A DNA stretch of 64,000 nucleotides. It comes from an uncultured bacterium (GTDB taxonomy: Bacteria > Bacillota_I > Bacilli_A > RFN20 > CAG-826). The notes below the pieces were generated by a model that was given only the letters and a program-made list of their open reading frames with translations, was not told the origin of the DNA and searched no databases. The stretch covers positions 456,107 through 520,106 of the forward strand of contig CASDYC010000001.1 of assembly GCA_949285665.1 (NCBI GenBank), in the 5' to 3' direction. Made by a program: the position numbers and the translations under genes. Below, one piece after another: positions 35,096 to 58,841 of this stretch. Within the stretch, counting starts at the first letter, position 1, and every line of letters begins with the position of its first letter.

Positions 35096-35650
35096 TTAGT
35101 GGTTTTCTTCACTTTTATTTTCGTTTTCTTTTTCAATTTCTGATTCTAGATAATCATAATAATAATCAATTATTTTTAAATCATCGAAAGGGAATATTCT
35201 TTTTTCCATTAATTTTTTAATTTCGGTTATCGTATTTTTTAAAATCGCATCAATTTTTGGATTGTAATGAAATAAGGTTTTATGATTTTCATATTCATTT
35301 ATGTCAATCAATTTAATTTCATTTTTATAATTAAATTTCATATCTAAATCATAATCGACATATTTTATTACACCATTTTCTAAAATTGGAGGGGAAGCCA
35401 AATTGACATAATATCCAACAAATGGATCTTTTAGCATTGCAATAACGTTAAACCATTTATTTTTTGGAAAGATTGTAATTGCTGGTTCTTTTGCTTTCCA
35501 TTCTCTACCATTTCCTTCAAAAACGAGAGCTTTTTTAGAAAGCAAAACAAAATAGTCTTCATTATTTTCAATTAAATATGACTTTTTCCAAGTTCTATGA
35601 AGACTTCCATCATGCTTATAGCATTTTACAATTACTTCGTTTTTTCGCAT
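35096..35650 (-). CDS. DUF402 (Ntdp/FomD-like nucleoside di- and triphosphatase family) protein
   Basis: 184 aa. The FVGYYVNLASPP and KYVDYDLD pattern resembles the DUF402 family. The call rests on memory only. Confidence 0.45.
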   Translation of the reverse strand: MRKNEVIVKCYKHDGSLHRTWKKSYLIENNEDYFVLLSKKALVFEGNGREWKAKEPAITIFPKNKWFNVIAMLKDPFVGYYVNLASPPILENGVIKYVDYDLDMKFNYKNEIKLIDINEYENHKTLFHYNPKIDAILKNTITEIKKLMEKRIFPFDDLKIIDYYYDYLESEIEKENENKSEENH

Positions 35651-36798: not shown

Positions 36799-36878
36799 AT
36801 TTAACCTCTAATAACTTAAAAATTTTAACACTTATTTTATATTAATAAAATAAAATTATTAGAGTACTATATCAAAAT

Positions 36879-38024
36879 TTATAAACTCTTATCACTATTA
36901 TCTTTGATTTCTTTGCTATTTTCTAATGTAGAATTTTCTTCTAAATTTTGATTTTCTAGTTCACTATTTTCTACTTCAGTATTTTCTTCTTCGCTTAATT
37001 TAATCGCTTTTAAGTTTAAATCATCTTGACTTGGTAAAACAGAATTAATCATAAATAATGGTTTAATATATAAAACAATTAAAACTGCAAGATTAATTGC
37101 TCCAGTTGGAAGTACATAAATTGCATTATAAATTAATGCGGCTCCAAATGTTGGAGTTTCTAAATCAGCAAGATAAAATACATAACTATCAATACTTGCA
37201 GCAAACCATCTAATTAAAGTTTGTCCAATAATCAAACCTGATAAAATTAATAAACCATACCAAGTAAAATGATCTTTTCCAATAATAAATTTTCTAAAAA
37301 TAGAAACAATCATTACACTTCCAAAAGCAATCATATATTCCATTGGGAATGTAAATAAACCATAACCATCTAAAACACAACTTAATAAACCATAAACTAA
37401 GCCACTAGCAATAAATGTTTTAGCTGGGCCATATCTTAAAGCGATCACAAATAAAGGAACAATTTGAAGATTAATACTTCCTCCGGTTGCTCCAAGTGGT
37501 ATTTTTAAATAATTTAATCCAAGTGCTAAAGCAACTAATACTGCAATTTCAGTCATACTTTTAACACTAAATACATCAGTTTTTCCTTCGGCACCAAATA
37601 GTAATAAGCAAGATAAAATTTCAAATACAGCAGCAAAAATAAATGTTGTTGTGTATTCAAAATTAAATTCTTCACTTATCATTCCAGGAGATTTTAAAAA
37701 ATTTGGAATTAAAAATAAACCAGCAACAATAACAAGAATTAATAAAGGGGTTATTCCTTTAATGTATTTTTTAAAAAACAATGAAATAGGAATCATAATT
37801 AATGAAACTACATTAAGAATGAAAATACATAATATAAATCCATTAAAATATTTCCCAAAAAACATTGAAGTACCTGAAATTTCTTCAATCACATCTTCTG
37901 TGGTTTCAAAAGATACTAGATTAAAAAAACTTAAAGTAAATCCAATTATCAAAAATAAAAAGGATAAGCAATAAAGAATAAATGATTGCAAATCCAAATG
38001 TAAGAATTCTAGTAATTTTTTCAT
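36879..38024 (-). CDS. ECF-type S-component-like membrane protein (ThiT-like thiamine or precursor transporter candidate) with extra N- and C-terminal regions
   Basis: The central region MTEIAVLVALALGLNYLKIPLGATGGSINLQIVPLFVIALRYGPAKTFIASGLVYGL is typical of ECF S components. A TPP riboswitch sits directly upstream. The start is moved to the ATG at 38022-38024, which is preceded by GGAGGTG. Confidence 0.5.
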   Translation of the reverse strand: MKKLLEFLHLDLQSFILYCLSFLFLIIGFTLSFFNLVSFETTEDVIEEISGTSMFFGKYFNGFILCIFILNVVSLIMIPISLFFKKYIKGITPLLILVIVAGLFLIPNFLKSPGMISEEFNFEYTTTFIFAAVFEILSCLLLFGAEGKTDVFSVKSMTEIAVLVALALGLNYLKIPLGATGGSINLQIVPLFVIALRYGPAKTFIASGLVYGLLSCVLDGYGLFTFPMEYMIAFGSVMIVSIFRKFIIGKDHFTWYGLLILSGLIIGQTLIRWFAASIDSYVFYLADLETPTFGAALIYNAIYVLPTGAINLAVLIVLYIKPLFMINSVLPSQDDLNLKAIKLSEEENTEVENSELENQNLEENSTLENSKEIKDNSDKSL

Positions 38025-38026
38025 AG

Positions 38027-38106
38027 TCACCTCCGCTAGCATTACCTAGATCAAGCATAGTTCAACTGAATCACAGTTGTCTCAGGCGAATTTATTCACC
38101 ACCCAA
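38027..38106 (-). promoter_or_regulatory. TPP (THI-box) riboswitch
   Basis: The minus-strand RNA reads GGUGGUGAAUAAAUUCGCCUGAGA-CAACUG-UGAUU-CAGUUG-AACUAUGCUUGAUCUAGGUAAUGCUAGCGGAGG. The pyrimidine-sensing CUGAGA motif, a P3 hairpin, and the pyrophosphate-sensing GAUCUAG-GUAAUGC-UAGCG-GAGG motif appear in the canonical order. The 3' end overlaps the SD GGAGG. Confidence 0.65.
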
Positions 38107-38191
38107 CAAAATTATAAATATTTAATCAAAAAAATTAAATAAAAAAATTTAAAATATACAAAATCAAATCAAAAATCTCTGCAAAACCTAA

Positions 38192-38857
38192 TTATTTTTG
38201 ATTTATATTCGCCCAATCAATCTCTTTTAAATTATGTTGTTTTAAAAAATTATTACACTTAATAAATACATTGCTATTAAACCAGCCACCTTTATTTGCA
38301 CTTAATGGACTTGGATGAGATGTTTTTAATACAAGATGATTTTTATTTTTAATTAATGGTTCAAGTTTTTGAGCCTCTCTTCCCCATAACATATAAACAA
38401 TTGGTTTATCTAATTGTTCAATAAAATTAATAACATCGATAAAAAAATTATCATACTGTTTAATTTTATGAGATAAAGCCATATGTGCTCTAACAGTTAG
38501 ATATTTATTTAAAAGTAAAACACCTTGCTTTGCAAGATATGTTAAATCTCCATCTTTTTTATTAATATTGCCAAATTCAATTTTAATTTCTTTATAAATA
38601 TTAATTAAACTTGGAGGAATTTCTACACTTTTATTAACACTAAAAGCTAACCCATTAGCTTGATTTTCTTCATGATATGGATCTTGACCAACAATTACAA
38701 CTTTTAAATCACTAACACTACAATAATCAAAACAAGCAAAAACTCTATTTCTTGGAGGATATATTATATGATTTTTGTATTCTATGTTTAAAAATTTATT
38801 AAGTTCAAGACAATAATCTTTGTTTTTTATATTTTTAAATAAATCAGTCCATTCCAT
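38192..38857 (-). CDS. ung: Uracil-DNA glycosylase (family 1)
   Basis: Family 1 UDG motifs VVIVGQDPYH and HPSPLS. 221 aa. Confidence 0.8.
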   Translation of the reverse strand: MEWTDLFKNIKNKDYCLELNKFLNIEYKNHIIYPPRNRVFACFDYCSVSDLKVVIVGQDPYHEENQANGLAFSVNKSVEIPPSLINIYKEIKIEFGNINKKDGDLTYLAKQGVLLLNKYLTVRAHMALSHKIKQYDNFFIDVINFIEQLDKPIVYMLWGREAQKLEPLIKNKNHLVLKTSHPSPLSANKGGWFNSNVFIKCNNFLKQHNLKEIDWANINQK

Positions 38858-39740
38858 TTTTCTTTTTTGATAAATAATAAAAAATCTCGTATAACCCTTT
38901 TATTGCTAAATATGATGTAATATCGTTAATATCGAGTTTTGGAGAAACTTCAACTAGATCAAGAGAAATACAGTTTAAATATCTTATTAAATTACAAATA
39001 ATTTTAATAACTGTTAAATTATCAATGCCAAATGGCTCTGGAGTACCTGTTCCTGGGGCATAACTTGGATCATTTATATCTATATCATATGATATATGAA
39101 TAAGATATTTATCGCTAGAATATTTATTAACTAAATATTCAACTAAAGCATCTGTTTTTAGTTTTAAAACATCGCTTGTTTTAAAAACATCAATTTTAGG
39201 ATGCTTTTTTAAAAATTCAACTTCTTGTAATTCAAAACCTCTTGCTCCAATTATTGTTAAGTTTTCATCTTTTAAACCATAATCTAAGCTTCTTTTATTT
39301 GGACAAGCATGCGAATATAAATTATCTTCATAAATATCACAAATATCTGGATGAGCATCAAAATGAATTACGACTGGGATTTTATTTAATTTTTTTGCAT
39401 AATCAATAAATGCTCTTTCAGAAGCAATTGAAATTGAATGATCTCCCCCTAAAAAGACATTAAATTTATTCTTATTATATATATCAAAAATTTTATCTTG
39501 AATAACTTTAAAATCTTCATCTAAAATATCGCCATTATCAAATAATTTTACATTTTCAATTAAATATCCATCCATTGATAAAGCTGGAACCATAATTGAT
39601 AATTCTCTAATATGACTTGGAGCAAGACTTGCTCCTTTTCCAATTGATGCATTTTTATCTAATGGGATACCAGTTAAAATTATATCTGCATCATTTAAAT
39701 TTTTTGTTAATAAACCTCGAAATTCCTCGCAATTCTTCAT
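38844..39740 (-). CDS. Arginase/agmatinase/formiminoglutamase-family ureohydrolase
   Basis: Binuclear Mn ligand motifs GGDHSISIA, HFDAHPD and SYDIDINDPSYAPGTGTPEPFG. Substrate specificity cannot be determined from the sequence. Confidence 0.7.
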   Translation of the reverse strand: MKNCEEFRGLLTKNLNDADIILTGIPLDKNASIGKGASLAPSHIRELSIMVPALSMDGYLIENVKLFDNGDILDEDFKVIQDKIFDIYNKNKFNVFLGGDHSISIASERAFIDYAKKLNKIPVVIHFDAHPDICDIYEDNLYSHACPNKRSLDYGLKDENLTIIGARGFELQEVEFLKKHPKIDVFKTSDVLKLKTDALVEYLVNKYSSDKYLIHISYDIDINDPSYAPGTGTPEPFGIDNLTVIKIICNLIRYLNCISLDLVEVSPKLDINDITSYLAIKGLYEIFYYLSKKKNGMD

Positions 39741-40123
39741 TATTTTGCACCTCTTCTATTCCAAAATCCACCTATAAATATCATAAAACCTAAAACTATA
39801 TTAACAATTGTATCAATTATTCGATAATTATATGTCAAGTTTGATTCAACATTTAAAAATGTTAAAGAATAAAAAATTCCAAATCCAATAATTAATAAAC
39901 CTAATCCTAGATCGGCTTCTAAAAATCGATTTTTCTTAAATAAATATAATGAATATATAGAAATAACAAGTTTAGCAGTTATATCAAAAAAGGCAATTAA
40001 ATTATCTAAAAAAGTTGATTCTTTAACATAATATGCACCATAGAGAACAATTTGACAAATAGCTATAATAATTAAAGCTATTGATGCACAACAAATAAAT
40101 AATTTGCCGATTGTTTTAAACAT
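39740..40123 (-). CDS. Small membrane protein (127 aa, about 4 TM) of unknown function
   Basis: Hydrophobicity only. Its stop overlaps the arginase-family start by 1 nt. Confidence 0.35.
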   Translation of the reverse strand: MFKTIGKLFICCASIALIIIAICQIVLYGAYYVKESTFLDNLIAFFDITAKLVISIYSLYLFKKNRFLEADLGLGLLIIGFGIFYSLTFLNVESNLTYNYRIIDTIVNIVLGFMIFIGGFWNRRGAK

Positions 40124-40129
40124 ATTTTA

Positions 40130-40507
40130 TTAAAATTCCCATCTATGTGGTAATAATTCTGATAATTTATATACTTTATCATTTAATAAAATTTCTGTAT
40201 TTAAATTATCATTATCAATTTGGACCATAAATTCACGACACCTTCCACAAGGTGGAACTATATCATGTTTTACACTAACTGCAACTAATTTCGCAATCTT
40301 TGTTTCATTATTTGTTAACATTGTTCCAATAGCATTTGCTTCTGCACAATAACCCATTGAACATGCTGTATCAATATTAATACCAGTATAAACATTACCA
40401 TCCACTGTTTCTAAAGCACAAGCAACTTGTCCAATTTCTGTATTTCTTGAAGTAGTTCTTGGATTTAATGTCTTTTTAGCAATTTCATATAATTGTTTAA
40501 ATTCCAT
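40130..40507 (-). CDS. cdd: Cytidine deaminase (homotetrameric type)
   Basis: Zinc motifs CAEANAI and PCGRCREF. 125 aa. Confidence 0.8.
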   Translation of the reverse strand: MEFKQLYEIAKKTLNPRTTSRNTEIGQVACALETVDGNVYTGINIDTACSMGYCAEANAIGTMLTNNETKIAKLVAVSVKHDIVPPCGRCREFMVQIDNDNLNTEILLNDKVYKLSELLPHRWEF

Positions 40508-40674: not shown

Positions 40675-43029
40675 ATGAAGAAAAATTTACTAACAATTGC
40701 AAGTGCATTGTTATTGTCAATTTCTTTAGCTTCCTGTGATGGTCGAACCGTTGATGGTTCATCAAGTACTGCTACGTCTGATACAGCTACTACTACAACC
40801 ACAGGTACAACAACTACTGGTACAACAACTACTGGTACAACCACAACTACTACAACTACTACTTCCGTCCATACAATGGATGAAGTATTAGCTCAACTTA
40901 AAGGCGTTTTAAGTTTAAAAGGCGATTTGTCAATGCTAGTTAAGGAAAATGGCATTGTCGTTTCTAGTCAAAAATCTGTTTTAGAAGTATTAGTTTCTCC
41001 ATCTCATTACTTTAATAGAGAAACAGGTGATTCTTTCTACATTACAGATATGTATTTAGCAGAAGATGGAACAACTGTTGAAAAATCAGTTGATCCTACA
41101 ACTGGAGAAGTAAGTGAATCTGCTTCTTATTATGATATTGCTGAGTATCAAAACCCATTTGCTGATTTAACAGTTGATGATTTAACACTTGGTGCAAATC
41201 ATCAAGTCGCAATAACATTAACTGAAGATGAATTTACAAAAGCTGGTGCTGTATTAACAATGTATGGCGAAGCTTCTGTTACTTTCCAAACAGCTGTATT
41301 AACAATTGATGATGATTACATGATTACAGAAATGACATTTACTGGAGTTAGCAGCGAAGGTGTCGAATCAAAGTTTGCTTGTTCTGTAATTGATGAAAGT
41401 GAATTAAGTATTCCAGTTTATGAAAGAACTGAAACACATGAAGAAATCGATTCATTATTTAGTGAACTTAAAAAAGGTAATTATACTTTTGCAGTTGAAG
41501 ATAGTGCTGGTGTAGCTTTTGAAACTAAAGTTACTTCTGAAGGTTTTATTATTGATGATCAACAAGGATATATTTTAACAGATGAAGGTTTAGCTGATTT
41601 TGAAGTCGTTGATGGAAAATTAGTTGGTTCATCCCCAGCAACAAGCTTAACAATGGCTGATGTTGTTCCTCCATTTGATTATTTATCTTCAATGTTTGAT
41701 AAAGATGGAGATGTTTATACACTTCCAGCTGGTCTTGGATTAGATTTTGCAATTGAAAATATTTTACCAGAAGCTGCAATATATGATCCTCTTGGCTATG
41801 GTATTGTTTTAGTAGATGATGGTTCATATACATTAACAAATAATCAAGATGGAACTTGGGCTGCTTCATATACTTCTTCTGATCCATTATTTGGATCACA
41901 AGTAACAGTTGAAGTTACAATTTCGGAAATTGGTACAACATTATTTGGTTACACTTTAGAAGATTATGTTGAACCAGCACCACAAACTTCATGGGCAGAT
42001 GTTGATTATGCTCTTGAATTATTAGAACTAGCTGGTATTGCAGAAGAAGATTTACCATTCTATTTACCAGAAGGTGGTTTCTGGCAACTTGATACAGAAA
42101 ATCTTTCTGACTTAATTTTACTCTTACCAAGTGATGTAACTGCTACTCAAGCTCTTACTACTTATACAAGTATGTTAGTTAATGCTGGTTGGGAGCAAAC
42201 ATCTACTAGTGATTATGGAACAAGTTTCTCATTAGATACTGGTGAGCCAGGAAAACTTATTGGTAATATTACATTAGAAGCATATGATGAAGATGGTTTA
42301 TTTGTAATTTGGTTTGAAGATCCAACTCTTCCAGAAACAGAAAATAAAGTAGGACCTTGGATTGATGAACACTTTGCAGATTCAGCAACAATTAACTATA
42401 CAATGGAATTTGATTCTACTTTATATTATTATGAAGTTGATCAAGAAACTCAAATTAAATTAGATGATGTTGCAGATGGAAGTCAAGAATTTGGAACTTC
42501 AAGATTTATGTATACAAAAGATGCAATGCTTACTGGTAAAGTAAGTGAAACTAATGCATTTACACCAAGTGTATTATACTTAAATACTACTAGCGGATTA
42601 TCAATTTATACATATTCAACCGGAGAACCAACACTTGCTCAATCATATCCAGATTATACTTATCAAGCTAATGCTGTTTATACAATGGCTGATTTAGTTG
42701 GTATGGAATCATTATTAGCACTTAATGAAGATGGAACACAAGTTGAGGTTATGGATGAATATGATCTATATTACATTCTTGAAATGACTCAATTTGCTTT
42801 GACCTCTGGTGGAGAAGAAGTTGAATTAACACCTGTTAAATGCGTTATGACACTAGATGAAACTGCAAATGAACTTCAATTCACATTAACATTAGAAGAT
42901 CAAAATTATCTATGGTGGTTAGATCAAGCTCAAACTAAACTTGCATGTATGGAAGTTGAAATTGTAGGTACAATTAAAGCAATTGGAACTACTACAATTG
43001 ATGAAACATACTTACCAAGTAGTCTATAA
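40675..43029 (+). CDS. Large surface lipoprotein with a Thr-rich low-complexity linker (paralog 1)
   Basis: Lipoprotein signal MKKNLLTIASALLLSISLASC. It is followed by DTATTTTTGTTTTGTTTTGTTTTTTTT and then a ~700-aa acidic D/E/T-rich domain. RBS GGAGGTG. Confidence 0.7.
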   Translation: MKKNLLTIASALLLSISLASCDGRTVDGSSSTATSDTATTTTTGTTTTGTTTTGTTTTTTTTTSVHTMDEVLAQLKGVLSLKGDLSMLVKENGIVVSSQKSVLEVLVSPSHYFNRETGDSFYITDMYLAEDGTTVEKSVDPTTGEVSESASYYDIAEYQNPFADLTVDDLTLGANHQVAITLTEDEFTKAGAVLTMYGEASVTFQTAVLTIDDDYMITEMTFTGVSSEGVESKFACSVIDESELSIPVYERTETHEEIDSLFSELKKGNYTFAVEDSAGVAFETKVTSEGFIIDDQQGYILTDEGLADFEVVDGKLVGSSPATSLTMADVVPPFDYLSSMFDKDGDVYTLPAGLGLDFAIENILPEAAIYDPLGYGIVLVDDGSYTLTNNQDGTWAASYTSSDPLFGSQVTVEVTISEIGTTLFGYTLEDYVEPAPQTSWADVDYALELLELAGIAEEDLPFYLPEGGFWQLDTENLSDLILLLPSDVTATQALTTYTSMLVNAGWEQTSTSDYGTSFSLDTGEPGKLIGNITLEAYDEDGLFVIWFEDPTLPETENKVGPWIDEHFADSATINYTMEFDSTLYYYEVDQETQIKLDDVADGSQEFGTSRFMYTKDAMLTGKVSETNAFTPSVLYLNTTSGLSIYTYSTGEPTLAQSYPDYTYQANAVYTMADLVGMESLLALNEDGTQVEVMDEYDLYYILEMTQFALTSGGEEVELTPVKCVMTLDETANELQFTLTLEDQNYLWWLDQAQTKLACMEVEIVGTIKAIGTTTIDETYLPSSL
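40789..40863 (+). repeat. Tandem 15-nt repeat (ggtacaacaactact) encoding GTTTT units within a Thr-rich linker
   Basis: Two perfect 15-nt copies at 40804-40833. Degenerate copies extend through 40863. Confidence 0.6.
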
Positions 43030-43066: not shown

Positions 43067-43187
43067 CACTTATTAAAAAAATGTTTAAAGGCCTTAAATA
43101 GGTCTTTAAACATGATTAGGGTTTTAATATTTTTAACTAAATATTTCTATATATTTAAAAAAAATTATGTAATTGAAAGGAGATTTT

Positions 43188-45635
43188 ATGAAAAATAAAT
43201 TACTAATTTTTGCAACAGCTATCTTATTTAGTATTACATTAGCATCTTGTGATAATAACACAACTTCTTTAAGTAATACTACAACTAGCACTCAAACAAC
43301 AACTCAAACGACAACTACTACAACTACAACTACTACTACAACAACAACTAGTATTGATCCCGCAACAGTTTTAAGTAATGTTTTAAATCAATTAAAGTCA
43401 CCAATTTCATACGATGGAAAAATTGTTTTAAAACAAAATGGTATTGTTTTATCTCAAATGCATATTTATGGCTATCAAGGTGTTGGTGAAGTTTATATTA
43501 ATAGAGATGGCACAGCAATTCACTTATTTAAAGATGAAACTGGTTATGCAGTTCAAAAAATGATTAATCCTTTAAAAAATGAAGTTGTTAGTGTGCCACT
43601 TACATCTTCTTCGCAATATGTTTTATATGATGAATATGTATTTAATCCATTCCTTAGCTTAACTGCCGATGACTTAGTTTTAAGTGGTAATGAAATTACA
43701 ATTACTGCAACTCAAGAAAATGGTCTTGCTCAATCTTTAAGATATTTTGCTTTTTATACTGATGAGATGAAAGAAGTAAAATTAACTATTGATGATGTTG
43801 GGACAATTTTAAAAGTTGAATTATCAAGTGATAATATTACTTATACAGCAGATATTGTTGATAAAGAAACAATTAATGTTCCAGTAATTGAAGCAAAACA
43901 AGCAACTTCTGATCATCAAAAATTAACAGATTTATTTACTGAATTAGAAAAAGGTAATTATACGGTATCTTATAAATCTGTTTATGAAGATGGTACAGAA
44001 AGCATTGAATTAACATCATTTGATTTTAAATTAACTCCTGATGGTTTATTAACTTCTACTGGTCAAGGGTTCTTAGAAACTGATGATGGATTAGTTCAAG
44101 TTGAAGTAACAGATGATAATAAACTTCAAGGTGTTAGTTTACCAGATGATAGTGTTTCAATTCTTGATGATTTTGTAAATCCATTTTCTCAATTTAAAGC
44201 AGAGACTTTTGATTATGAAAATAACATATTTACTTTACCAGAATATATTGATTATGATTATTTAACATATATTCTTCCAGAAATACAATTTGTTTATAGT
44301 AGTACTTTTGGTTATGAAGTAACTCCAGGTAGTTTATCAATTACATTTAATGAAGATAATACTTATACAATTAATTATGAATATATTTATTATACATATA
44401 ATGATGATTATGAACTTGTATATGTTCCATTAAATGTTACAACAGTAATCTCTAATGTTGGAACTACTTCTTTAGGTTATACATTAGATGATTATATTCC
44501 AAAACCAAGACAAAATTCTTGGAGTGATGTTGAAGGAGCTTCTGATCTATTAGAAACTTATTCGATTCCAAGTGATTTACTTCCATTTTATTTACCAGAT
44601 GAAGCAGATGAATGGTACATTTATAGTGACATTTATTCTGGTGATAGTTTATGTTTATCATTCCCAACCGGTGATAATTTAGCAGCTCATTATGCTGAAT
44701 ATAAAAAATTATTAGAAGCAAAGGGTTGGCAATCTCAAGGTGTTGATGATTATGATGAAGAAAAATTTACATATACAACATCTGAAGGTACAATTTTAAA
44801 AATTGGTCTTGTGCAAGTAGAACAAACTGGTCAATATGAATATTACGAAATTGATATTTATTTATATGCTCCAGAAATTGCATCAGAGATCTCAAATTAT
44901 GTAAATGAAAATATTGTTAATAAACATAACTACACACTTACTGGTACATTAGTTGAAACTTATACTGAAGTTGATGCTGATGGAAATACTGTCGAAAATG
45001 GAATAGTCATCGAAAATACTTTAGTTGATGGTTTGACAACTTATGTAACTGAAGATGCTTATTATCAATATATAGAAACTGAAAAAGGAAAAGCAGGCGT
45101 TCTTTATAAAGAAACTCAAAGTAATGGCACCATAAATACTGAAGGATATATTGCAATGACAGATGATCCAAATGGAGAATTAACTTTCCAATATTCCGAA
45201 GATTTATCAATTGACGATTGGGAATTATATTTATGGGTTTATACATTAGATGATGTATTTAATGGATATACTCCACTAGTTGTTGAAGATGACTACACAC
45301 TTGTTGGAAATGAAGGTCAAGGATATTATGGATTTAACGTTTTTTCAGAAGTATTATCTCTTATAATGTTCCCAGAAGATGCTGGATTTGAATTGGATTC
45401 ACTTTTATCTGAAGAAACTTTATTAAAAATTGATGAAATAGATCCAGATTCAATTATTGTAACAATGGATCCAGAAACAAAAGCCATTCAATTAGTTATT
45501 TCTTGTTTTAGTGAATCTGGTGTTACTATTGACGAACAAGAAGGAAAAACATTTAATCATACTATTGAATTAATCGTTGATGTCTCTGATATTGGTACAA
45601 CAACAATCGATCTTGATTCATTTAATATTCAATAA
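43188..45635 (+). CDS. Large surface lipoprotein with a Thr-rich low-complexity linker (paralog 2)
   Basis: Signal MKNKLLIFATAILFSITLASC. Linker TSTQTTTQTTTTTTTTTTTTTT. It shares conserved blocks with paralog 1 (ELEKGNYT..., SW.DV.....LLE......LPFYLP...). Start at ATG 43188, preceded by AAAGGAG. The ORF-track TTG start at 43173 is rejected. Confidence 0.7.
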   Translation: MKNKLLIFATAILFSITLASCDNNTTSLSNTTTSTQTTTQTTTTTTTTTTTTTTSIDPATVLSNVLNQLKSPISYDGKIVLKQNGIVLSQMHIYGYQGVGEVYINRDGTAIHLFKDETGYAVQKMINPLKNEVVSVPLTSSSQYVLYDEYVFNPFLSLTADDLVLSGNEITITATQENGLAQSLRYFAFYTDEMKEVKLTIDDVGTILKVELSSDNITYTADIVDKETINVPVIEAKQATSDHQKLTDLFTELEKGNYTVSYKSVYEDGTESIELTSFDFKLTPDGLLTSTGQGFLETDDGLVQVEVTDDNKLQGVSLPDDSVSILDDFVNPFSQFKAETFDYENNIFTLPEYIDYDYLTYILPEIQFVYSSTFGYEVTPGSLSITFNEDNTYTINYEYIYYTYNDDYELVYVPLNVTTVISNVGTTSLGYTLDDYIPKPRQNSWSDVEGASDLLETYSIPSDLLPFYLPDEADEWYIYSDIYSGDSLCLSFPTGDNLAAHYAEYKKLLEAKGWQSQGVDDYDEEKFTYTTSEGTILKIGLVQVEQTGQYEYYEIDIYLYAPEIASEISNYVNENIVNKHNYTLTGTLVETYTEVDADGNTVENGIVIENTLVDGLTTYVTEDAYYQYIETEKGKAGVLYKETQSNGTINTEGYIAMTDDPNGELTFQYSEDLSIDDWELYLWVYTLDDVFNGYTPLVVEDDYTLVGNEGQGYYGFNVFSEVLSLIMFPEDAGFELDSLLSEETLLKIDEIDPDSIIVTMDPETKAIQLVISCFSESGVTIDEQEGKTFNHTIELIVDVSDIGTTTIDLDSFNIQ

Positions 45636-47151: not shown

Positions 47152-47175
47152 ATCAAACTCCTTTAAAAATATATA

Positions 47176-47199
47176 GGCATAAGATAATTCTTATGCCTA
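47176..47199 (-). terminator. Terminator downstream of adhE, also the 5' leader of the hydrogenase gene
   Basis: aggcataaga-taat-tcttatgcct is a perfect 10-bp stem. On the minus strand it is followed by AUAUAUUUUU. Confidence 0.55.
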
Positions 47200-47241
47200 C
47201 AAATTATTATACTATAAATTTCAAGTTAACTTAAATTACAA

Positions 47242-49869
47242 TTAGTTGCCTTTATATGCTTTACGCATAATTTCTTTCATATCTTCAACCATTGGAATTC
47301 TTGGATTTGCGGTTGTACATTGATCTTCAAATGCAAGATAAGCTAAATCATCTAATGATTCATCCCAAGCTTTTTCATCTTTTACCCAACATGAGAAGTT
47401 TGGATCAACACCACATTCTTTAATTAATGTAGCAACAGCATCTGCAAGTTTATCAACAGCATCATGTAAATCTTTATATTTAATGCCAATTACATCACAT
47501 ATTTCAGCATATTTTTCTGGAGCACAATAATAATTATATTTTGGCCAAGTAGTTAATTTTTGAGGTAAGATTTTACCATTATATCTAATAACATGTGGTA
47601 ATAAAATTGCGTTTGCAAGACCATGTGGAACATGCCATTCACCACCAATTTTATGAGCCATTGAGTGACACATACCTAAGAAAGCATTTGCAAATGCCAT
47701 ACCAGCAATTGTACTAGCATTATGCATTTTTTCTCTTGCTTCTAAATCATGCTTCCCATCTTTTACACATCTTACTAAATATTTAAATACAATTTTAATT
47801 GCTTGTAATGCAAGACCATCCGTATAATCACTTGCTAAAACACTTGTATATGCTTCAATTGCATGAGTTAAAACATCAAGACCAGTCCAAGCTGTTGTTG
47901 CTGGAGGTAAATTTGTTGTAAATTCTGAATCAACAATAGCGATTGTTGGAGTTAAAGAATAATCAGCTAATGGATATTTCTTCATATTAGCTTTATCAGA
48001 AATAACTGCAAATGGAGTTACTTCACTACCAGTGCCAGATGTTGTTGGAATACAAATAAGTTTAGATTTTTTACCTAATTCAGGATATTTAATAGCTCTT
48101 TTTCTAATGTCCATGAATTTTTGTTTTAAATCATCAAAATTAACTTCTGGATGTTCATAGAATAACCACATACCTTTTGCAGCATCCATACAGCTACCAC
48201 CACCTAAAGCAATAATTGTATCTGGTTGGAAGGATTGCATTAAAGCTACACCTCTTTTAACTGTTGAAATATCTGGATCTGGTTCGACATCACAGAATAA
48301 AGCTGTTGTGACTTTATTTCTTCTTAAATTTAATTGTTCAGTAATTTTATTTAAGAAACCAAGTTCAACCATTGAACCATCTGTTACGATACAAACTCTA
48401 TTTACATTTCTACAAGTTCTTAAATATTCAATTGAGTTTCTTTCAAAATAAATTTTTGAAGGAACTTTAAACCATTGCATTGTATTTCTCCTTTTTCCGA
48501 TTTTTTTGATATTGATTAAATTGATACAACTAATATTTCCTGCAACCGAGTTATGACCATAACTTCCACAACCAAGTGTCATTGAAGGAATAAATGAGTT
48601 GTAGATATTACCAATTCCACCAAATGATGTTGGAGAATTCCAAATGATTCTACAAGCTTCACATCTTTTACCAAATTCATCAGCTAATTCTTGAGATTTT
48701 GTATGAATACATGCACTATGGCCTAAACCATTAAGTTCAACCATTTGTTCACTTAATTTTAAACCTTCTTCATTATCTTTTGCTTTTAAGATAGCTAAAA
48801 CTGGTGATAATTTTTCTCTTGATAATGGTTCTTCATAACCAACCTTTTTAATCTTAACAGCTAAGATAACTGTTTCTTTTGGAACGCTAAATCCGGCTTG
48901 TTCAGCAATCCAAACTGCTGATTTTCCAGCAACTTTAGAATTAAGACTTAATAATTGGCAATCTTTGCTATATGCTTTATTGCCAAACATAAACATTTCT
49001 AATTTTTCTTTTTCTTCTTCGTTTACAAAATAAACGTTATATTTTTTAAATAAATCAACTGCTTCATCGTATACATCTTTATGAATAATTGCAGCTTGTT
49101 CACTTGCACAAACCATACCATTATCAAATGATTTGGACATAACAATGTCATTTACTGCTTGTTTTACGTCTGCGTCTGAAGCAATAAATGCAGGAACGTT
49201 ACCAGCACCAACGCCTAAAGCAGGTTTTCCACAGCTATAAGCTGATTTAACCATTGAGTTTCCACCAGTTGCAAGAATTGTAGCGACACCAGGATGTTTC
49301 ATTAATGCACTTGTTGCAGCCATTGATGGTTTATCAATCCATTGAATACAATTTTTTGGAGCACCATTTGCAACCGCTGCTTCTAAAATAACTTGAGCAG
49401 CCATTTTAGAACATTGTTGTGCATTTGGATGGAAAGAAAAAATAATAGGATTACGTGTTTTTAAAGAAATTAAACACTTAAAAATTACAGTTGAAGTTGG
49501 ATTGGTTACTGGTGTAATACCACAAATAACACCAACTGGATCAGCAATTTCAGTAATTCCAGTAACAGGATTTTCTGAAATTATACCAACTGTTTTCATA
49601 TGTCTCATATGATTAACAACGTATTCACATGCGAATAAATTTTTTGTTGCTTTATCTTCAAAAACTCCTCTTTTTGTTTCTTCAATTGCTGCTCTTGCAA
49701 GTATTCCATGTTTATCAAGTGCAGCACATGAACATTTTGCAACAATCAAATCAACTTGTTCTTGATCTAATTTTAAAAATTCTTCTAATGCTTTTTGTCC
49801 TTTTACAACTAAGTCATTAACCATTGTATCGACTTCAAGTTGTTTTTCATCTTTTTTAATTTCTTCCAT
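47242..49869 (-). CDS. adhE: Bifunctional acetaldehyde-CoA/alcohol dehydrogenase AdhE
   Basis: 875 aa. N-terminal ALDH domain and C-terminal Fe-ADH domain (GGGSCMDAAKGMW and the HSMAHKIGGEWHVPHG His cluster). It starts 4 nt downstream of rex. Confidence 0.85.
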   Translation of the reverse strand: MEEIKKDEKQLEVDTMVNDLVVKGQKALEEFLKLDQEQVDLIVAKCSCAALDKHGILARAAIEETKRGVFEDKATKNLFACEYVVNHMRHMKTVGIISENPVTGITEIADPVGVICGITPVTNPTSTVIFKCLISLKTRNPIIFSFHPNAQQCSKMAAQVILEAAVANGAPKNCIQWIDKPSMAATSALMKHPGVATILATGGNSMVKSAYSCGKPALGVGAGNVPAFIASDADVKQAVNDIVMSKSFDNGMVCASEQAAIIHKDVYDEAVDLFKKYNVYFVNEEEKEKLEMFMFGNKAYSKDCQLLSLNSKVAGKSAVWIAEQAGFSVPKETVILAVKIKKVGYEEPLSREKLSPVLAILKAKDNEEGLKLSEQMVELNGLGHSACIHTKSQELADEFGKRCEACRIIWNSPTSFGGIGNIYNSFIPSMTLGCGSYGHNSVAGNISCINLINIKKIGKRRNTMQWFKVPSKIYFERNSIEYLRTCRNVNRVCIVTDGSMVELGFLNKITEQLNLRRNKVTTALFCDVEPDPDISTVKRGVALMQSFQPDTIIALGGGSCMDAAKGMWLFYEHPEVNFDDLKQKFMDIRKRAIKYPELGKKSKLICIPTTSGTGSEVTPFAVISDKANMKKYPLADYSLTPTIAIVDSEFTTNLPPATTAWTGLDVLTHAIEAYTSVLASDYTDGLALQAIKIVFKYLVRCVKDGKHDLEAREKMHNASTIAGMAFANAFLGMCHSMAHKIGGEWHVPHGLANAILLPHVIRYNGKILPQKLTTWPKYNYYCAPEKYAEICDVIGIKYKDLHDAVDKLADAVATLIKECGVDPNFSCWVKDEKAWDESLDDLAYLAFEDQCTTANPRIPMVEDMKEIMRKAYKGN

Positions 49870-49873
49870 TTTT

Positions 49874-50515
49874 TTACCTCTCTTTTCTTTTTAAAATTAA
49901 TTGATGATATAAATTAGCATAGCTAGATGCCATAGACATGTTTGAAACAACAATATTTGGATTTACATTAATTGCAATTGTCGCAAAATTCCATATCGCT
50001 TCAATTTTTGTTTGATTTAAGATATCAACTACTTCTTGAGCATGATTATTTGGAACTGTTAAAATTGCAACTGAAATGTTATTTTTATCTACATAATCTT
50101 TAAGTTCTTTTAGTGGATAGACATTAATACCATTAATATCTACTTCGTATAATAATGGATTAATATCAAATGCTGCAATAATATTTAAACCATTCTTTTT
50201 AAAGTCATCAAAATTTAACAAAGCTTTTCCAAGATGACCGGCACCAATTAAAACAGCATTTAATTCTTCTTTCACACCAACAATTTTCATTAAGTCATTA
50301 ATTAAAACCGATACTTTTCTTCCAATTCTTGGTAAGCCTTTTTCACTTGAAATAGCCGCTAAATCTTTTTTAACTACTTCAATGTTTAATTTAAGAACAT
50401 TTGCAAACTCACGATTGGAAATATAAGTATTATCATCAAAATTAATGGACCTTAAGTAATCCAAATAAAGCGGGTATCTTTGAACTTGATTCTGAGATAA
50501 TTTGTTCCTTTTCAT
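49874..50515 (-). CDS. rex: Redox-sensing transcriptional repressor Rex
   Basis: N-terminal winged helix (RYPLYLDYL). Rossmann NADH-binding motif IGAGHLGKALL. 213 aa. Confidence 0.8.
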   Translation of the reverse strand: MKRNKLSQNQVQRYPLYLDYLRSINFDDNTYISNREFANVLKLNIEVVKKDLAAISSEKGLPRIGRKVSVLINDLMKIVGVKEELNAVLIGAGHLGKALLNFDDFKKNGLNIIAAFDINPLLYEVDINGINVYPLKELKDYVDKNNISVAILTVPNNHAQEVVDILNQTKIEAIWNFATIAINVNPNIVVSNMSMASSYANLYHQLILKRKER

Positions 50516-50573
50516 AAACTCGGTATTTTTTTACCGATATAATGATACTAAATAATTTCTTATTACTCAATAA

Positions 50574-51467
50574 TTATTTTTTATATATTTTATTATATAT
50601 AAAATCACAATAAATTTTGGCTATATTAACCTTACTAATTTTTTCAATTTCCGTAAAAAAGGCATTAGAATTAACTTCTATCAAAATATATTTTCCGCTT
50701 TTATCCAATACAAAATCAACAGCACAATAATCAAGTTTTAATAATTTACTTGCCTTTGTTGCATCTTTAATAATTTGTTTATTTGGTGTGAAAGTATAAC
50801 CAACACCACCTGCTGCTACATTAGAAACATATGAATTGTTGTTAACCCTTTTCATATAAGCTACAGGTTTTTTATTAATTAAGAAAACTCGATAATCAGT
50901 ACCTTTTGATTCTTGTATAAATTCTTGAAAAATATGAGGAGTATATTTTAATTTTTCTTCGATTAAATTAAAATCATCTAAATTATTAATTAAATAGACT
51001 TGTTTTCCAAGAGAACCAAAGTTTTCCTTAATTAAAAATGGAAAAGTGAATTCTTTTAATATCTTATTTTTAAATTCAATAAATTTACTTTCATTATTAA
51101 AATAATTCAATGGATAAGATATTGTTTTAGGCATCATTATATTATTATTTGACAATTTAATATGCGTTAACATTTTATCATCGCAATCAATTATTGATTT
51201 TGAATTATTAAATAAAATGTATCGTTCTTTTTCTAATAATTCACTAATATATTTATCTTTATCTAAATAAATAATAAAATCATATTTTTTTAATTTATTG
51301 GTAATTTTTCCTTCATTATCTATGTAAATAAAAATATCGATGTTAGAAATAACATCAATTGAAACGTTTACCTCTTTAAATTCTTCAATTAATCGATTAA
51401 TTTGATATATAGTTGAATCTCTTAATATAAAAGCATTTACAATAATTGCACCTAACTTATTTTCCAT
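50574..51467 (-). CDS. ATP-grasp ligase of the RimK-like family (alpha-L-glutamate ligase-like)
   Basis: The C-terminal half (DYRVFLINKKPVAYMKRV..SNVAAGG..KLLKLDYCAVDFVLDKSGKYILIEVNSNA) parallels the RimK ATP-grasp core. Its start overlaps the glf stop by 11 nt. Confidence 0.6.
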   Translation of the reverse strand: MENKLGAIIVNAFILRDSTIYQINRLIEEFKEVNVSIDVISNIDIFIYIDNEGKITNKLKKYDFIIYLDKDKYISELLEKERYILFNNSKSIIDCDDKMLTHIKLSNNNIMMPKTISYPLNYFNNESKFIEFKNKILKEFTFPFLIKENFGSLGKQVYLINNLDDFNLIEEKLKYTPHIFQEFIQESKGTDYRVFLINKKPVAYMKRVNNNSYVSNVAAGGVGYTFTPNKQIIKDATKASKLLKLDYCAVDFVLDKSGKYILIEVNSNAFFTEIEKISKVNIAKIYCDFIYNKIYKK

Positions 51468-52584
51468 TTTTTACGTTCATTAATTTATTAAAATCATCAA
51501 AAGCCTGTTTAATTGTATCATCCATATCAAAATATTTATAGTTACCTAATCTTCCTCCAAATAAAATATTTTTTTCAGCTTCTGCTTTTTCTTTATATTT
51601 ATTATATAAATTGTTATTTTTATCATCATTTACTGCGTAATATCTTTCTTCACCAATTTTATATGAATTAGGATATTCTTTTGAAATAATTGTAAATGGT
51701 AAATTTAAAACATCTTCGTTTTCAATTTGAAAAAATTTATGTTCTATAATTCTTGTATAAGGTATATCAAATTCTGTGTAATTTACAACAGCATTATTTT
51801 GATATGCTTGCTTATTAATTCTTTCGGTTTTAAATTTTAAACTTCGATATTCTAATTCGCCAAAACAGTAATTATAATACTCATCAATTGGTCCGCTATA
51901 TATAATAAACTTTGCAATTCTTGAATATTTTCCCTTATTTTTTAAAAAATCTTCATTTAAAACCACTTCAATTCCGTCGAGCATTCTTTCAATAATTTTT
52001 GTATACCCATCAATTGGAATTCCTTGATATTTATCATTAAAATAATTGTTATCATATTCAAATCTTAAAGGTATTCTTTTAATAATAAAACTAGGCAAAT
52101 CTTTAGCGCTTTTACCCCATTGTTTTTCAGTATAACCTTTAATTAATGTTTCATAAATATCTCTTCCAACCAATGATAAAGCTTGATCTTCCAAATTTTT
52201 AATTTCTTTAATATTTTCTTTTTTAACTTGTTCTTCTATTTTTTCTTTTGCTTCTTGAGGTGTTTTAACTCCCCACATCTGATTAAAAGTGTTCATATTA
52301 AAAGGCATATTAAAATATTTGCCTTTATAATAAGCAAGTGGTGAATTTATAAAATTATTAAATTTAGAAAATTTATTAACAAAATTCCAAACATCTTCAT
52401 AACTTGTATGAAAAATATGGGCACCATAGACATGAACATTAATTCCATCAACATTTTTTGTATAAATATTCCCAGCTATATGATCTCTTTTTTCAATAAC
52501 TAAAACTTTAAACCCTTTATTTTTTAAAAGATAAGCTAAAGTTGCGCCATAAAGACCACTTCCAATAATTAAATAATCATACAT
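51457..52584 (-). CDS. glf: UDP-galactopyranose mutase
   Basis: N-terminal FAD fold YDYLIIGSGLYGATLA and the NIYT pattern. 375 aa, typical Glf length. Confidence 0.8.
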   Translation of the reverse strand: MYDYLIIGSGLYGATLAYLLKNKGFKVLVIEKRDHIAGNIYTKNVDGINVHVYGAHIFHTSYEDVWNFVNKFSKFNNFINSPLAYYKGKYFNMPFNMNTFNQMWGVKTPQEAKEKIEEQVKKENIKEIKNLEDQALSLVGRDIYETLIKGYTEKQWGKSAKDLPSFIIKRIPLRFEYDNNYFNDKYQGIPIDGYTKIIERMLDGIEVVLNEDFLKNKGKYSRIAKFIIYSGPIDEYYNYCFGELEYRSLKFKTERINKQAYQNNAVVNYTEFDIPYTRIIEHKFFQIENEDVLNLPFTIISKEYPNSYKIGEERYYAVNDDKNNNLYNKYKEKAEAEKNILFGGRLGNYKYFDMDDTIKQAFDDFNKLMNVKNGK

Positions 52585-52585
52585 A

Positions 52586-53134
52586 TTAGTTTTTTCCTTT
52601 ATTTTCTAAATATAATTTATATAAAGATAAACCTACTAAAAATTTAGAATCTTTAATTAAACCTTTTTTGTAATATTCATTTATTTCATCAAAAGTTAAA
52701 TAGATTAAAGAAATATTTTCATTTTCATCTAAATTTTGTTTATCTAAATCAAAACTATCAGTAAAATAAACAAAAATTTCTTCACTAGAATTACCAGCGC
52801 TTGGATAAAAGCTACCTAAAAATGTCATATTTTTACTTACTAATCCAGTTTCTTCATGTAATTCTCTAATTGCTGCAGTTTTTGGATCTTCGCCAGCATC
52901 AATTTTTCCAGCTGGAATTTCTATAATACTGGATTTAACAGCATATCGATATTGTTTAACAAATAAAACTTTATTATCTTTAATAACTAAAATACATGAT
53001 GCATTATGAGGTTTTATATATTCTCTTTTTGTCTTGTGATTATTAAAAGTTACTAAAACATCATCTGAATATAAATCTAATATCTTCCCATTATAAACAA
53101 TATTTTCTTTAATAGTGATTTCTTTATTTTCCAT
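52586..53134 (-). CDS. NUDIX hydrolase
   Basis: Nudix box GKIDAGEDPKTAAIRELHEETGL. It lies 1 nt upstream of glf. Confidence 0.7.
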   Translation of the reverse strand: MENKEITIKENIVYNGKILDLYSDDVLVTFNNHKTKREYIKPHNASCILVIKDNKVLFVKQYRYAVKSSIIEIPAGKIDAGEDPKTAAIRELHEETGLVSKNMTFLGSFYPSAGNSSEEIFVYFTDSFDLDKQNLDENENISLIYLTFDEINEYYKKGLIKDSKFLVGLSLYKLYLENKGKN

Positions 53135-53160
53135 AAATTAAATCCCTTTATATTATTAAA

Positions 53161-53772
53161 TTAGTGAATGAAATTTGTTTGATGACCACTTTCAAGTTTT
53201 ATATCATCTCTTTTTAATAAATATTTAGCCATATTTCTTGCTAAATTTCTCATTGTTTGTAAACCTTCTTCATCTTTTTCAACATCTTCTTTTTTCATAC
53301 CATGAACCATATTCAAATAAGATGAAGAAATTATAGGCATATTTGTAATTCCGAAATATTTATAAAGAACATCTAAACTAGCGCTTGTTCCAGCTCTTCT
53401 TGCTGAAACAACAACTGCTCCTGGTTTTCCTTCAAATAATTTTTTATCACTAGAACAAAATACTCTATCTAAAAAACTTAAAATTCTTCCACTTGGATGA
53501 GCATAATAAACAGGGGAGCCAAAAACTAAAGCATCGCTTTGTTTTATTTTTGATATGAAATCATTAACCCCATCATTATCAATTTTTGAAAATATACAAC
53601 CTTCAGAAGTACATTTATTGCAGCCAATACAATCTCTTATTGGTTTATTTGTGATTTGAAAAATTTCAAAATCAATACCAAATTCATTTTTTAATGTATT
53701 TCCAACTTCAATTAATGCTCTATTTGTACATCCATCAGGATTTGCAGATCCATTTAACATTAATACTTTCAT
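53161..53772 (-). CDS. Flavodoxin-fold NADPH-dependent FMN reductase-like protein with a compact Cys cluster (iron-sulfur flavoprotein, Isf-like)
   Basis: MKVLMLNGSANPDGCT is a flavodoxin-like fold. CIGCNKCTSEGC gives a CxxCxxCxxxxC spacing, as in Isf [4Fe-4S] sites. Confidence 0.5.
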   Translation of the reverse strand: MKVLMLNGSANPDGCTNRALIEVGNTLKNEFGIDFEIFQITNKPIRDCIGCNKCTSEGCIFSKIDNDGVNDFISKIKQSDALVFGSPVYYAHPSGRILSFLDRVFCSSDKKLFEGKPGAVVVSARRAGTSASLDVLYKYFGITNMPIISSSYLNMVHGMKKEDVEKDEEGLQTMRNLARNMAKYLLKRDDIKLESGHQTNFIH

Positions 53773-54233
53773 TTCAAAACTCCTTTTTCTAATTTAAGTA
53801 ATTTATTTTTTGTATTTTCTCCTAATACATAATTTGAAATTTTACCATTTGATTTTATAATTCTATGGCAAGGAATAAAAAATAAAACATCATTTTTACT
53901 TAAAATATTCCCAACAAATCTCGCATATTTTTTATTATTGAAACATTTTTTTGCTAATTCTTGATATGATTTAGTTTCTCCATAAGGAATCATTAAAACT
54001 TCCTTATAAACTAATTGTTGATATTTATTAAAATGAGATAGATCAATTAAGACATCAAATGTTTTTCTTTTTAAATTAAAATATTCATCTAATTGCTTGA
54101 TGTAATTTTCTTCAATTTTTTTGTTATCAGAAATTTTGTTCATATTATTTTTGTCACATAAAGAACAATAATATAATTCATTTTTATTATTTACCAATAA
54201 TAAAATATCACCAAAAATTGACTTATATATCAT
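53769..54233 (-). CDS. ogt: Methylated-DNA--protein-cysteine methyltransferase
   Basis: Active-site motif IPCHRII and a helix-turn-helix. 154 aa. Its stop overlaps the Isf-like start (ATGA). Confidence 0.75.
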   Translation of the reverse strand: MIYKSIFGDILLLVNNKNELYYCSLCDKNNMNKISDNKKIEENYIKQLDEYFNLKRKTFDVLIDLSHFNKYQQLVYKEVLMIPYGETKSYQELAKKCFNNKKYARFVGNILSKNDVLFFIPCHRIIKSNGKISNYVLGENTKNKLLKLEKGVLK

Positions 54234-54272
54234 AAAACGCTGTAATTCTTTAATATTTTATCTATTTATGAT

Positions 54273-54299
54273 AAAGGCCCCATATTAAATGGAGCCTTT
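54273..54299 (-). terminator. Probable terminator downstream of PFOR
   Basis: aaaggcccca-tattaaa-tggagccttt is an imperfect hairpin 12 nt after the PFOR stop. Confidence 0.45.
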
Positions 54300-54311
54300 A
54301 CACACATCAAA

Positions 54312-57959: not shown

Positions 57960-58841
57960 TTAGTTATTTTTATCGATATATTTTTTAATAAATTGTTTGA
58001 CGCTTTCACCAATATCGTCTCTTAAACAACTATAAAAAATAAATGCTTCAGCATATCCAAGTTTCGAACCTGTATCAAATCTAATTCCTTGTAAGTTTTT
58101 AGCAAATATTTTGTTATTATCAACCAACATATTTTTTAAAGCATCAGTTAATTGAAATTCGTTATTTTTTCCAACTTTTAATTTTTCAATGAAATCAAAA
58201 ATATTATTTTTAAAGATATATCTTCCAATAATTGCATAATTTGAAGGTGCTTTTTCAATTTCTGGTTTTTCCATTAAATCATTTAATTGAAATACATCAG
58301 CTTCAATCTCTTTTTCAACACCAACTATTCCATATTTAGATACTTCGCTTTTATCAACTTCTTGAACTGCAATTACATTACAATCATATTGATTATAAAT
58401 ATCTAATAATTGTTTTAAACAAGGATAATCTTGATTATACATTAAATCATCACCTAAAATTACTGCAAAATCTTCTCCAGCAATTTCATTTTTTGCAACA
58501 TATAATGCATTTGCAAGTCCAATTGGTTTTTCTTGATAAACAAAACTAATCTTAACACCACTTCCAATTGACTCTATTGCTTTTAATTCATTTAATTTAT
58601 TTTCTTTTTTTAGTGTTTTAGTTAATTCTTCATCTTTTGAATAATACTTTTCAATTTCTGGTTTTTTATTATTAACAATTAAAATAACTTCTTCAATGCC
58701 ACTTTTTTTACATTCATCTACTAAATATTCTAGGTTAGGTCTGTCAACAATTGGAAGCATTTCTTTTGCAACAGATTTAGTAAATGGCAAAAATCTAGTG
58801 CCTAAACCTCCGGCAGTAATAATTACTTTTTTTATTTTCAT
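57960..58841 (-). CDS. galU: UTP--glucose-1-phosphate uridylyltransferase
   Basis: N-terminal motif KKVIITAGGLGTRFLPFTKSVAKEMLPIVD. 293 aa. Confidence 0.8.
   Translation of the reverse strand: MKIKKVIITAGGLGTRFLPFTKSVAKEMLPIVDRPNLEYLVDECKKSGIEEVILIVNNKKPEIEKYYSKDEELTKTLKKENKLNELKAIESIGSGVKISFVYQEKPIGLANALYVAKNEIAGEDFAVILGDDLMYNQDYPCLKQLLDIYNQYDCNVIAVQEVDKSEVSKYGIVGVEKEIEADVFQLNDLMEKPEIEKAPSNYAIIGRYIFKNNIFDFIEKLKVGKNNEFQLTDALKNMLVDNNKIFAKNLQGIRFDTGSKLGYAEAFIFYSCLRDDIGESVKQFIKKYIDKNN

Follow-up and report, generated by a model that had tools for sequence, protein, structure and literature searches.

A co-directional ogt-isf-nudix-glf-ligase gene string in an uncultured gut Bacilli genome, probably a mosaic of functionally unrelated modules

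The window analysed here, a stretch of 64,000 nucleotides of contig CASDYC010000001.1, comes from the metagenome-assembled genome (MAG) of an uncultured gut member of the Bacilli; its G+C content is about 25% and its GC skew is negative throughout. At 50574-54233 it carries a string of five minus-strand genes: ogt (53769-54233; 154 amino acids, aa), for a methylated-DNA-protein-cysteine methyltransferase of DNA repair; isf, for an FMN reductase of flavodoxin fold that is Isf-like and has four cysteines in a compact motif (53161-53772; 203 aa); nudix, for a NudF-type Nudix hydrolase of the ADP-ribose / nucleoside diphosphate-X (NDP-X) pyrophosphatase family (52586-53134; 182 aa); glf, for UDP-galactopyranose mutase (51457-52584; 375 aa); and a gene for a RimK-family ATP-grasp carboxylate-amine ligase that belongs to a clade of its own (50574-51467; 297 aa). 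According to the list of open reading frames (ORFs), ogt and isf overlap by 4 nucleotides (nt) in an ATGA, isf and nudix are separated by 26 nt and nudix and glf by 1 nt, and glf overlaps the ligase gene by 11 nt, so that the start codon of the latter overlaps the stop codon of the former. These five reading frames and all four gaps agree with an initial annotation, which had described a translationally coupled operon and had taken the glf/ligase pair as a hint of a pathway to an amino-acid-modified galactofuranose (Galf) glycoconjugate. An operon-like layout is supported by the positions and spacing of the ORFs, and translational coupling is compatible with the sequence. The whole segment recurs at 95-100% identity in a conspecific MAG (L001, CALVNF010000005).

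Pfam and NCBIfam profile searches bore out the family assigned to each of the five products. Glf matches PF03275 (257.5 bits) and exceeds the cutoff of the equivalog model TIGR00031 (415.3 versus 303.75); it has an FAD-binding GxGxxG motif (G8-S-G-L-Y-G13; PF13450, 78.4 bits) and aligns over residues 1-369 with the UGM of Escherichia coli (1i8t, 478 bits). By these matches Glf is a UDP-galactopyranose mutase, predicted to interconvert UDP-galactopyranose (UDP-Galp) and UDP-galactofuranose (UDP-Galf). Ogt matches PF01035 (83.5 bits) and PF02870 (25.8 bits), scores above the cutoff of TIGR00589 (80.6 versus 46.4) and has the active-site motif P121-C122-H123-R124 in its translation. The Isf-like protein matches the flavodoxin-like FMN_red family (PF03358, 99.8 bits), and C48-x2-C51-x2-C54-x4-C59 can be read from its translation; the cluster motif of Isf-type proteins is a compact CX2CX2CX4-7C, as in Methanosarcina Isf. 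The Isf-like protein reached no NCBIfam equivalog in the libraries used, which contain no curated Isf model, and had no significant sequence match in the PDB, nor anything informative even at E<=1.

Loci for comparison came from exact-protein look-ups and from a metagenome scan (80 loci with flanks of up to 8 kb), and all loci were searched with the window proteins by tblastn. The sample comprised 84 non-conspecific loci with an orthologue of the ligase gene (38-58% identity; 726 kb of flanks), 57 of which were informative, having at least 1.2 kb upstream of that gene. In a single one of the 57, L004, is glf found upstream of the ligase gene; there the two genes overlap by 4 nt, and the products are 58% (ligase) and 73% (Glf) identical to those of the window. 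In the other informative loci, up to 8 kb of flank contain no glf. The two genes, whose adjacency in relatives the initial annotation had proposed to check, are therefore neighbours in one other lineage and not in the remaining 56 informative loci, and no synteny of glf and the ligase gene is conserved.

The closest relative of the ligase (60% identity; L095) is encoded in the order PNP_UDP_1 gene (14-nt overlap), ligase gene, 126-aa ORF, arginase-family (agmatinase-like) gene, UDG gene. Other arrangements are a GNAT/PNP_UDP_1 fusion followed by ligase, rex and adhE genes (L097, 56%); PNP_UDP_1 and ligase genes, then dCMP deaminase, arginase-family or UDG genes (L007 and L008, 51%); a ligase gene followed by genes for dCMP deaminase, UDG, YuaJ and DUF402 proteins (L005 and L006, 54%); and a ligase gene divergent from a desulfoferrodoxin-rex-adhE series (L096, 56%). 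Conversely, two loci with Glf homologues of 72-73% identity (L089 and L090) have the order nudix-glf-rex-adhE-hydrogenase-dCMP deaminase-127 aa-arginase, with no ligase gene between glf and rex. Clustering of the neighbours in all loci gave no operonic partner of the ligase gene that is conserved across the family; most neighbours are on the opposite strand, including the commonest one, a DJ-1/PfpI-like gene present in 20 loci.

PNP_UDP_1, of the nucleoside phosphorylase/nucleosidase family, is absent from the window and is a more recurrent partner of the ligase gene than glf. It stands directly upstream in three separate lineages, among them those closest to the window by their ligase (51-60% identity), with an overlap of 8-14 nt or a gap of 1 nt (L095:1-1183; L097:1075-3283; L007:5205-6885; L008:2728-4408).

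Downstream of the ligase gene in the window is a rex-adhE module on the minus strand (47242-50515), in which rex (49874-50515) was recognized by its profile score (NF003994, 191.8 versus a cutoff of 130) and adhE (47242-49869) was read from the ORF translation. This module comes after glf or the ligase gene in L004, L089, L090 and L097 as well; it is a conserved downstream module that may share a transcript with the five genes. Upstream, the order in L004 is PFOR-nudix-glf-ligase, without ogt and isf: PFOR is directly followed by nudix (L004:3-747, compared with window positions 53161-54311). The ogt-isf pair was therefore either inserted in the lineage of the window or lost from that of L004, and at this site the pair was found in the window species only. 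The caveat of the initial annotation that Ogt and the Isf-like protein might merely share the promoter is strengthened by their joint absence from the same position. The nudix-glf pair is present in four loci, which represent three lineages or more (the window species, L004, and L089/L090), and the ligase gene occupies this site in two lineages. Because ogt-isf, nudix-glf and the ligase gene are distributed separately among relatives, the five-gene string is a mosaic of three modules.

The locus is very probably best described as a set of housekeeping genes with unrelated functions that point the same way, are probably transcribed together and make up three independently mobile modules ahead of rex-adhE, in a compact and strongly strand-biased genome. 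The first module, ogt with isf, would combine DNA alkylation repair with a redox flavoprotein; the second would be a nudF-like nudix gene with glf; and the third would be the stand-alone RimK-family ligase gene. Each of the five products most likely acts alone. Ogt would remove O6-alkyl groups from DNA, and the Nudix protein would hydrolyse ADP-ribose or another NDP-X compound. From UDP-Galp, Glf would make the UDP-Galf used by a membrane glycosyltransferase family 2 (GT2) synthase, or by glycolipid glycosyltransferases, whose genes lie elsewhere. The ligase, if it works like RimK, LysX and ArgX, would use ATP to turn a carboxylate into an acyl phosphate, to which an amino acid, most likely L-glutamate, would then be joined; a protein C-terminus or a small acid would be the likeliest acceptor, with no demonstrable link to Galf.

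The close spacing of the five genes is no tighter than the default of the genome, because no more than 30 nt separate the genes in 27 of the 42 same-strand neighbour pairs in the window, the median gap being 4 nt. Thirteen pairs overlap, 46 of the 55 window genes are on the minus strand, and in six places at least three genes follow one another at tight spacing. The longest such run (12904-20522, minus strand) has eight genes with gaps of -16 to +3 nt, which by Pfam encode two ABC exporters, a 138-aa ORF without a family, TruA, EcfT, two EcfA ATPases and a cytidine/dCMP-type deaminase. Close packing of genes that differ in function is therefore normal in this genome. Similar strings of unrelated, tight or overlapping, co-directional genes are known as mixed-function 'uber-operon'-like arrangements of Firmicutes, such as ecfA-ecfA'-ecfT-truA, which the 12904-20522 run resembles. 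Whereas the ecf-truA arrangement is widely conserved, the order ogt-isf-nudix-glf-ligase belongs to this species and, in part, to L004. In small, strand-biased genomes overlapping or nearly abutting genes are the rule, and adjacency alone is not evidence of a pathway.

It is very improbable that Glf, the ligase and perhaps the Nudix protein form one pathway that makes or regulates an amino-acid-modified Galf glycoconjugate or a UDP-Galf derivative, at least in this lineage. Such a pathway would be consistent with the overlap of glf and the ligase gene, and with the failure of the ligase to reach any equivalog of known specificity. It would also be consistent with a weak match of the ligase to the sugar-transfer associated ATP-grasp family PF14397, at 38 bits over 39 residues (230-268, profile positions 216-255 of 278). 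However, this partial match covers only the generic C-terminal Mg/ATP motif, whereas the RimK family model gives 99 bits over residues 96-285, and the ligase does not qualify as a member of PF14397: besides the partial match, glf or other sugar genes adjoin the ligase gene in only one of the 57 informative loci. Furthermore, the string contains no glycosyltransferase. As the mark of a pathway the glf/ligase pairing does not hold up, since glf adjoins in L004 alone, the closest relative of the ligase has PNP_UDP_1 upstream instead, and L089 and L090 keep nudix-glf with no ligase gene at that site. A literature search brought up no paper that links RimK or ATP-grasp proteins with UDP-galactopyranose mutase.

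A few points do weigh against a string of unrelated genes. The overlap of glf and the ligase gene has been kept in the diverged locus L004, and therefore a lineage-specific functional link is possible; the substrate of the ligase may, formally, be sugar-linked; and the PF14397 match, weak and partial as it is, points the same way. That the ligase was recruited in the lineages of the window and L004 to link an amino acid to a molecule derived from UDP-Galf or containing Galf is nevertheless a long shot; if true, it would be a previously undescribed glycoconjugate modification.

The ligase belongs to the RimK family by both general models, TIGR00768 (rimK_fam, 165.5 versus a cutoff of 143.4) and PF08443 (RimK, 99.3 versus 21; residues 96-285), and falls below every equivalog: the S6 ligase NF007764 (52.2 versus 331), LysX TIGR02144 (109.1 versus 275.6), MptN (75 versus 350), CofF (53 versus 300) and GAK (52 versus 300). 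Because all equivalog models fail, the ligase is set apart from known specificities. A profile of 25 orthologues matches ArgX (3vpb, 112 bits) and E. coli RimK (5zct, 102 bits), with Pseudomonas RimK and LysX scoring about equally. The AlphaFold2 model of the ligase (pLDDT 91.5) superimposes on ArgX (3vpb) with a TM-score of 0.83, on LysX with 0.82 and on RimK with 0.78, at sequence identities of 17-23%. K147, D191, R193, R207, N216, G220-G221, D251, E264 and N266 are invariant across the 25 orthologues. By these sequence features, the ligase falls in the RimK/LysX group, where it has its own clade, and is predicted to be catalytically competent. Its hundreds of close homologues match at full length. 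In at least 424 metagenomic loci, from uncultured gut and rumen Bacilli/Firmicutes, membership of this orthologue clade was confirmed, at 38-60% identity. A word-limited search listed 1,499 matches at E<=0.001, more distant RimK-family relatives included, and a search of genome contigs with the ligase protein returned only the conspecific L001 and two distant matches from Nitrospinota.

With the characterized RimK, LysX and ArgX proteins (TIGR00768; 5zct, 3vpd, 3vpb) the ligase shares the three-domain ATP-grasp fold, the family model, the ATP/Mg and acyl-phosphate motifs and, in the case of ArgX, a C-x-DK-x-LT motif; the chemistry expected by analogy would be the joining of an amino acid to a carboxylate at the expense of ATP. 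The low identity, the failure of every equivalog and the absence of LysW, lysine or arginine neighbours set the ligase apart from them. No LysW carrier gene or α-aminoadipate (AAA)-lysine/arginine gene was found beside the ligase gene in the window, and the overlap with glf on one side and the 58 nt to rex on the other leave no room for a small LysW-type ORF. Across about 85 loci, the ORFs of at least 70 aa beside the ligase gene included neither a partner that is conserved nor any gene of lysine or arginine pathways; a LysW of about 54 aa would escape this size limit.

The ligase might be a true RimK, that is, a poly-alpha-L-glutamate ligase acting at the C-terminal end of ribosomal protein S6 that is unrelated to its neighbours, and this identity, though doubtful, is more probable than the Galf pathway. 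The score above the TIGR00768 cutoff and the presence of solved RimK structures among the top matches (5zct) are in keeping with it, as is the stand-alone position of the ligase gene in most relatives, where there is no conserved partner; the genetic context of RimK is described as highly diverse in a published study (PMC10092738). However, the S6-ligase model aligns only with residues 179-293 and falls far short of its cutoff, ArgX and LysX score as well as RimK or better, and identity to RimK is only about 21-22%. The ligase does not cluster firmly with the S6 ligases; the initial annotation had regarded such clustering, combined with no glf synteny in any other genome, as telling against a pathway, and the synteny is not nil either, being shared by L004. 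No match to rpsF was seen in 964 kb (the window and the fetched loci), which were probed with approximate S6 sequences. The one mildly novel element of the locus is this RimK-family clade, whose substrate would add one specificity to the RimK/LysX group and no new kind of system.

The neighbourhood of the ligase gene has a longer history than its present neighbours. At 35096-40507 the window carries genes for dCMP deaminase, a 127-aa protein, an agmatinase-like protein, UDG, YuaJ, a 382-aa protein and a DUF402 protein, and because this block is found both in the window and in relatives, the ligase gene is an old resident of the neighbourhood whose immediate neighbours were reshuffled. Within the block, the order dCMP-deaminase-like (125 aa), 127-aa protein and agmatinase-like (38844-40507, minus strand) is kept in L089, L095 and L008, where it comes after the ligase gene or the hydrogenase gene. 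The agmatinase-like protein scores 156 bits with TIGR01230, compared with a cutoff of 174.

The Nudix protein (PF00293, 70.7 bits) has an intact Nudix box, G76-x5-E82-x7-R90-E-L-H-E-E-T-G-L98, as in GX5EX7REUXEEXGU. Its top relatives in the PDB are ADP-ribose pyrophosphatases (8wv3 and 9jax, 114 bits over the full length), and the Bacillus methanolicus activator protein (8zr8) is also matched among solved relatives. It resembles NudF-type ADP-ribose pyrophosphatases (8wv3, 1v8i, 5c7q; the activator, ACT, 8zr8) in its intact box, its length of about 180 aa and its full-length matches of up to 114 bits, and differs from them in scoring below the curated cutoffs of TIGR00052 (53.1 versus 79.55) and NudE (NF008736, 63.6 versus 169). 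Most simply, by sequence, it is a NudF-type housekeeping enzyme. A role as UDP-sugar pyrophosphatase, which the initial annotation had considered, is possible and is not indicated by these matches, the nearest solved relatives being ADP-ribose pyrophosphatases.

In L004, L089 and L090, as in the window, nudix adjoins glf, with gaps of 1-16 nt, and the adjacency in these related lineages could be functional. Shared ancestry is sufficient to account for it, because the lineages are close relatives that also share rex-adhE and further synteny. That nudix and glf form a conserved functional unit, in which the Nudix protein would act as a pyrophosphatase of UDP-Galf/UDP-Galp and so control or clean the pool of UDP-Galf, is improbable. 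In addition to the adjacency, such a unit would fit Nudix homologues of 40-43% identity that L091 and L093 carry 2-5 kb away from glf, and the placement of the Nudix protein in the NDP-X hydrolase group by its NudE/YffH/NudK-like matches. Against it stand the full-length similarity to ADP-ribose pyrophosphatases, the sufficiency of common descent, the location of the Nudix gene on the opposite strand in L091 and L093, and the absence of any such gene nearby in L092 and L094.

The glf gene itself may have an ordinary supply role. In Mycoplasma mycoides, a galactofuranan is made by a route of GalU, GalE, Glf and a membrane GT2 synthase (PMC11658790). The window resembles this system in possessing a GalU-like gene and a GT2 gene with transmembrane segments, and differs from it in that galE was not seen in the 64-kb window. 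The GalU-like UTP-glucose-1-phosphate uridylyltransferase (57960-58841, minus strand; TIGR01099, 295.6, just under the cutoff of 326.8) is encoded upstream of the five-gene string, with PFOR as the one gene in between, and would supply the UDP-hexose precursor for Glf. A glycoconjugate cluster at 21091-25823 encodes candidate users of UDP-Galf: a GT2 of the synthase type (21091-22434), whose hydrophobic segments number about four, one N-terminal and three C-terminal; two ORFs without a family match (22445-23419, minus strand; 23474-24793, plus strand); and an IagA/BgsA/Dgs-type diacylglycerol glucosyltransferase (24810-25823) that scores about 392-398 bits, under cutoffs of 460 and 500. Because the GalU-like, GT2 and diacylglycerol glucosyltransferase genes share the window with glf, and given the mycoplasma route, an ordinary supply role would be sufficient for Glf.

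The window Glf is a full-length, high-scoring relative of the E. coli enzyme, yet unlike in the E. coli and mycoplasma systems its gene is located between nudix and RimK-family genes, outside any polysaccharide cluster. More distant Glf relatives are encoded beside epimerases or inside polysaccharide clusters (L092 and L094), or beside unrelated genes (L091 and L093). Two over-long Glf homologues in ENA assemblies, P0148 (525 aa) and P0149 (483 aa), were considered as possible Glf-ligase fusions and rejected: they contain tandem Glf duplications of about 110-150 residues and no ATP-grasp part, and are most likely assembly artefacts.

Several sequence signals bear on transcription of the string. 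At its upstream edge, a stable hairpin lies just behind the stop codon of PFOR (54272..54300, minus strand), with a stem of 12-13 bp; the 82-nt spacer between PFOR and ogt has a minimum free energy (MFE) of -21.6 kcal/mol (z = -3.9 relative to shuffles). The tail of this hairpin is not U-rich, which is why a consensus scan for terminators did not flag it; it is a probable terminator or attenuator. From 54233 to 47201 on the minus strand the same scan called no terminator-like site. Going downstream from ogt, a consensus intrinsic terminator is first reached after adhE (47172..47201, minus strand); it has a 13-bp stem and then TATTTTTAAA. That the five genes are transcribed together, perhaps along with rex-adhE, is plausible on this evidence.

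The ligase gene and rex are separated by a spacer of 58 nt (50516..50573, minus strand) that contains a promoter-like site and two small hairpins, and may hold an internal promoter for rex-adhE. The promoter-like site, TTGAGT-17-TATCAT at 50570..50542, agrees with the consensus at 9 of 12 positions. The spacer folds with an MFE of -13.6 kcal/mol (z = -4.5), and its second hairpin, UCGGUA-N6-UACCGA, ends 5 nt ahead of the rex start codon. No terminator-like site was called in the spacer by the consensus scan, and no canonical Rex operator was seen on inspection by eye. In this AT-rich DNA, a consensus scan for promoters found 60 sites compared with 73.5 in shuffled controls, which is fewer than expected, and so the scan provides no usable evidence of promoters. 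Neither Rfam nor tRNA scans gave a match in the cluster or close to it, the sole match being a tRNA-Thr gene at 9348-9421.

Two other regions of the window may be noted. Large plus-strand ORFs of 784 aa (40675-43029) and 820 aa (43173-45635) without any Pfam match lie between the Fe-hydrogenase and dCMP-deaminase genes; the latter two genes directly adjoin in L089, and therefore the large ORFs look like a lineage-specific insertion. The 617-aa product of a plus-strand gene at 10995-12848 combines an ODP metallo-beta-lactamase-like domain (flavodiiron-type), a flavin reductase domain and a C-terminal rubredoxin-like domain, and from this architecture looks like a fused O2/NO-detoxifying flavodiiron protein.

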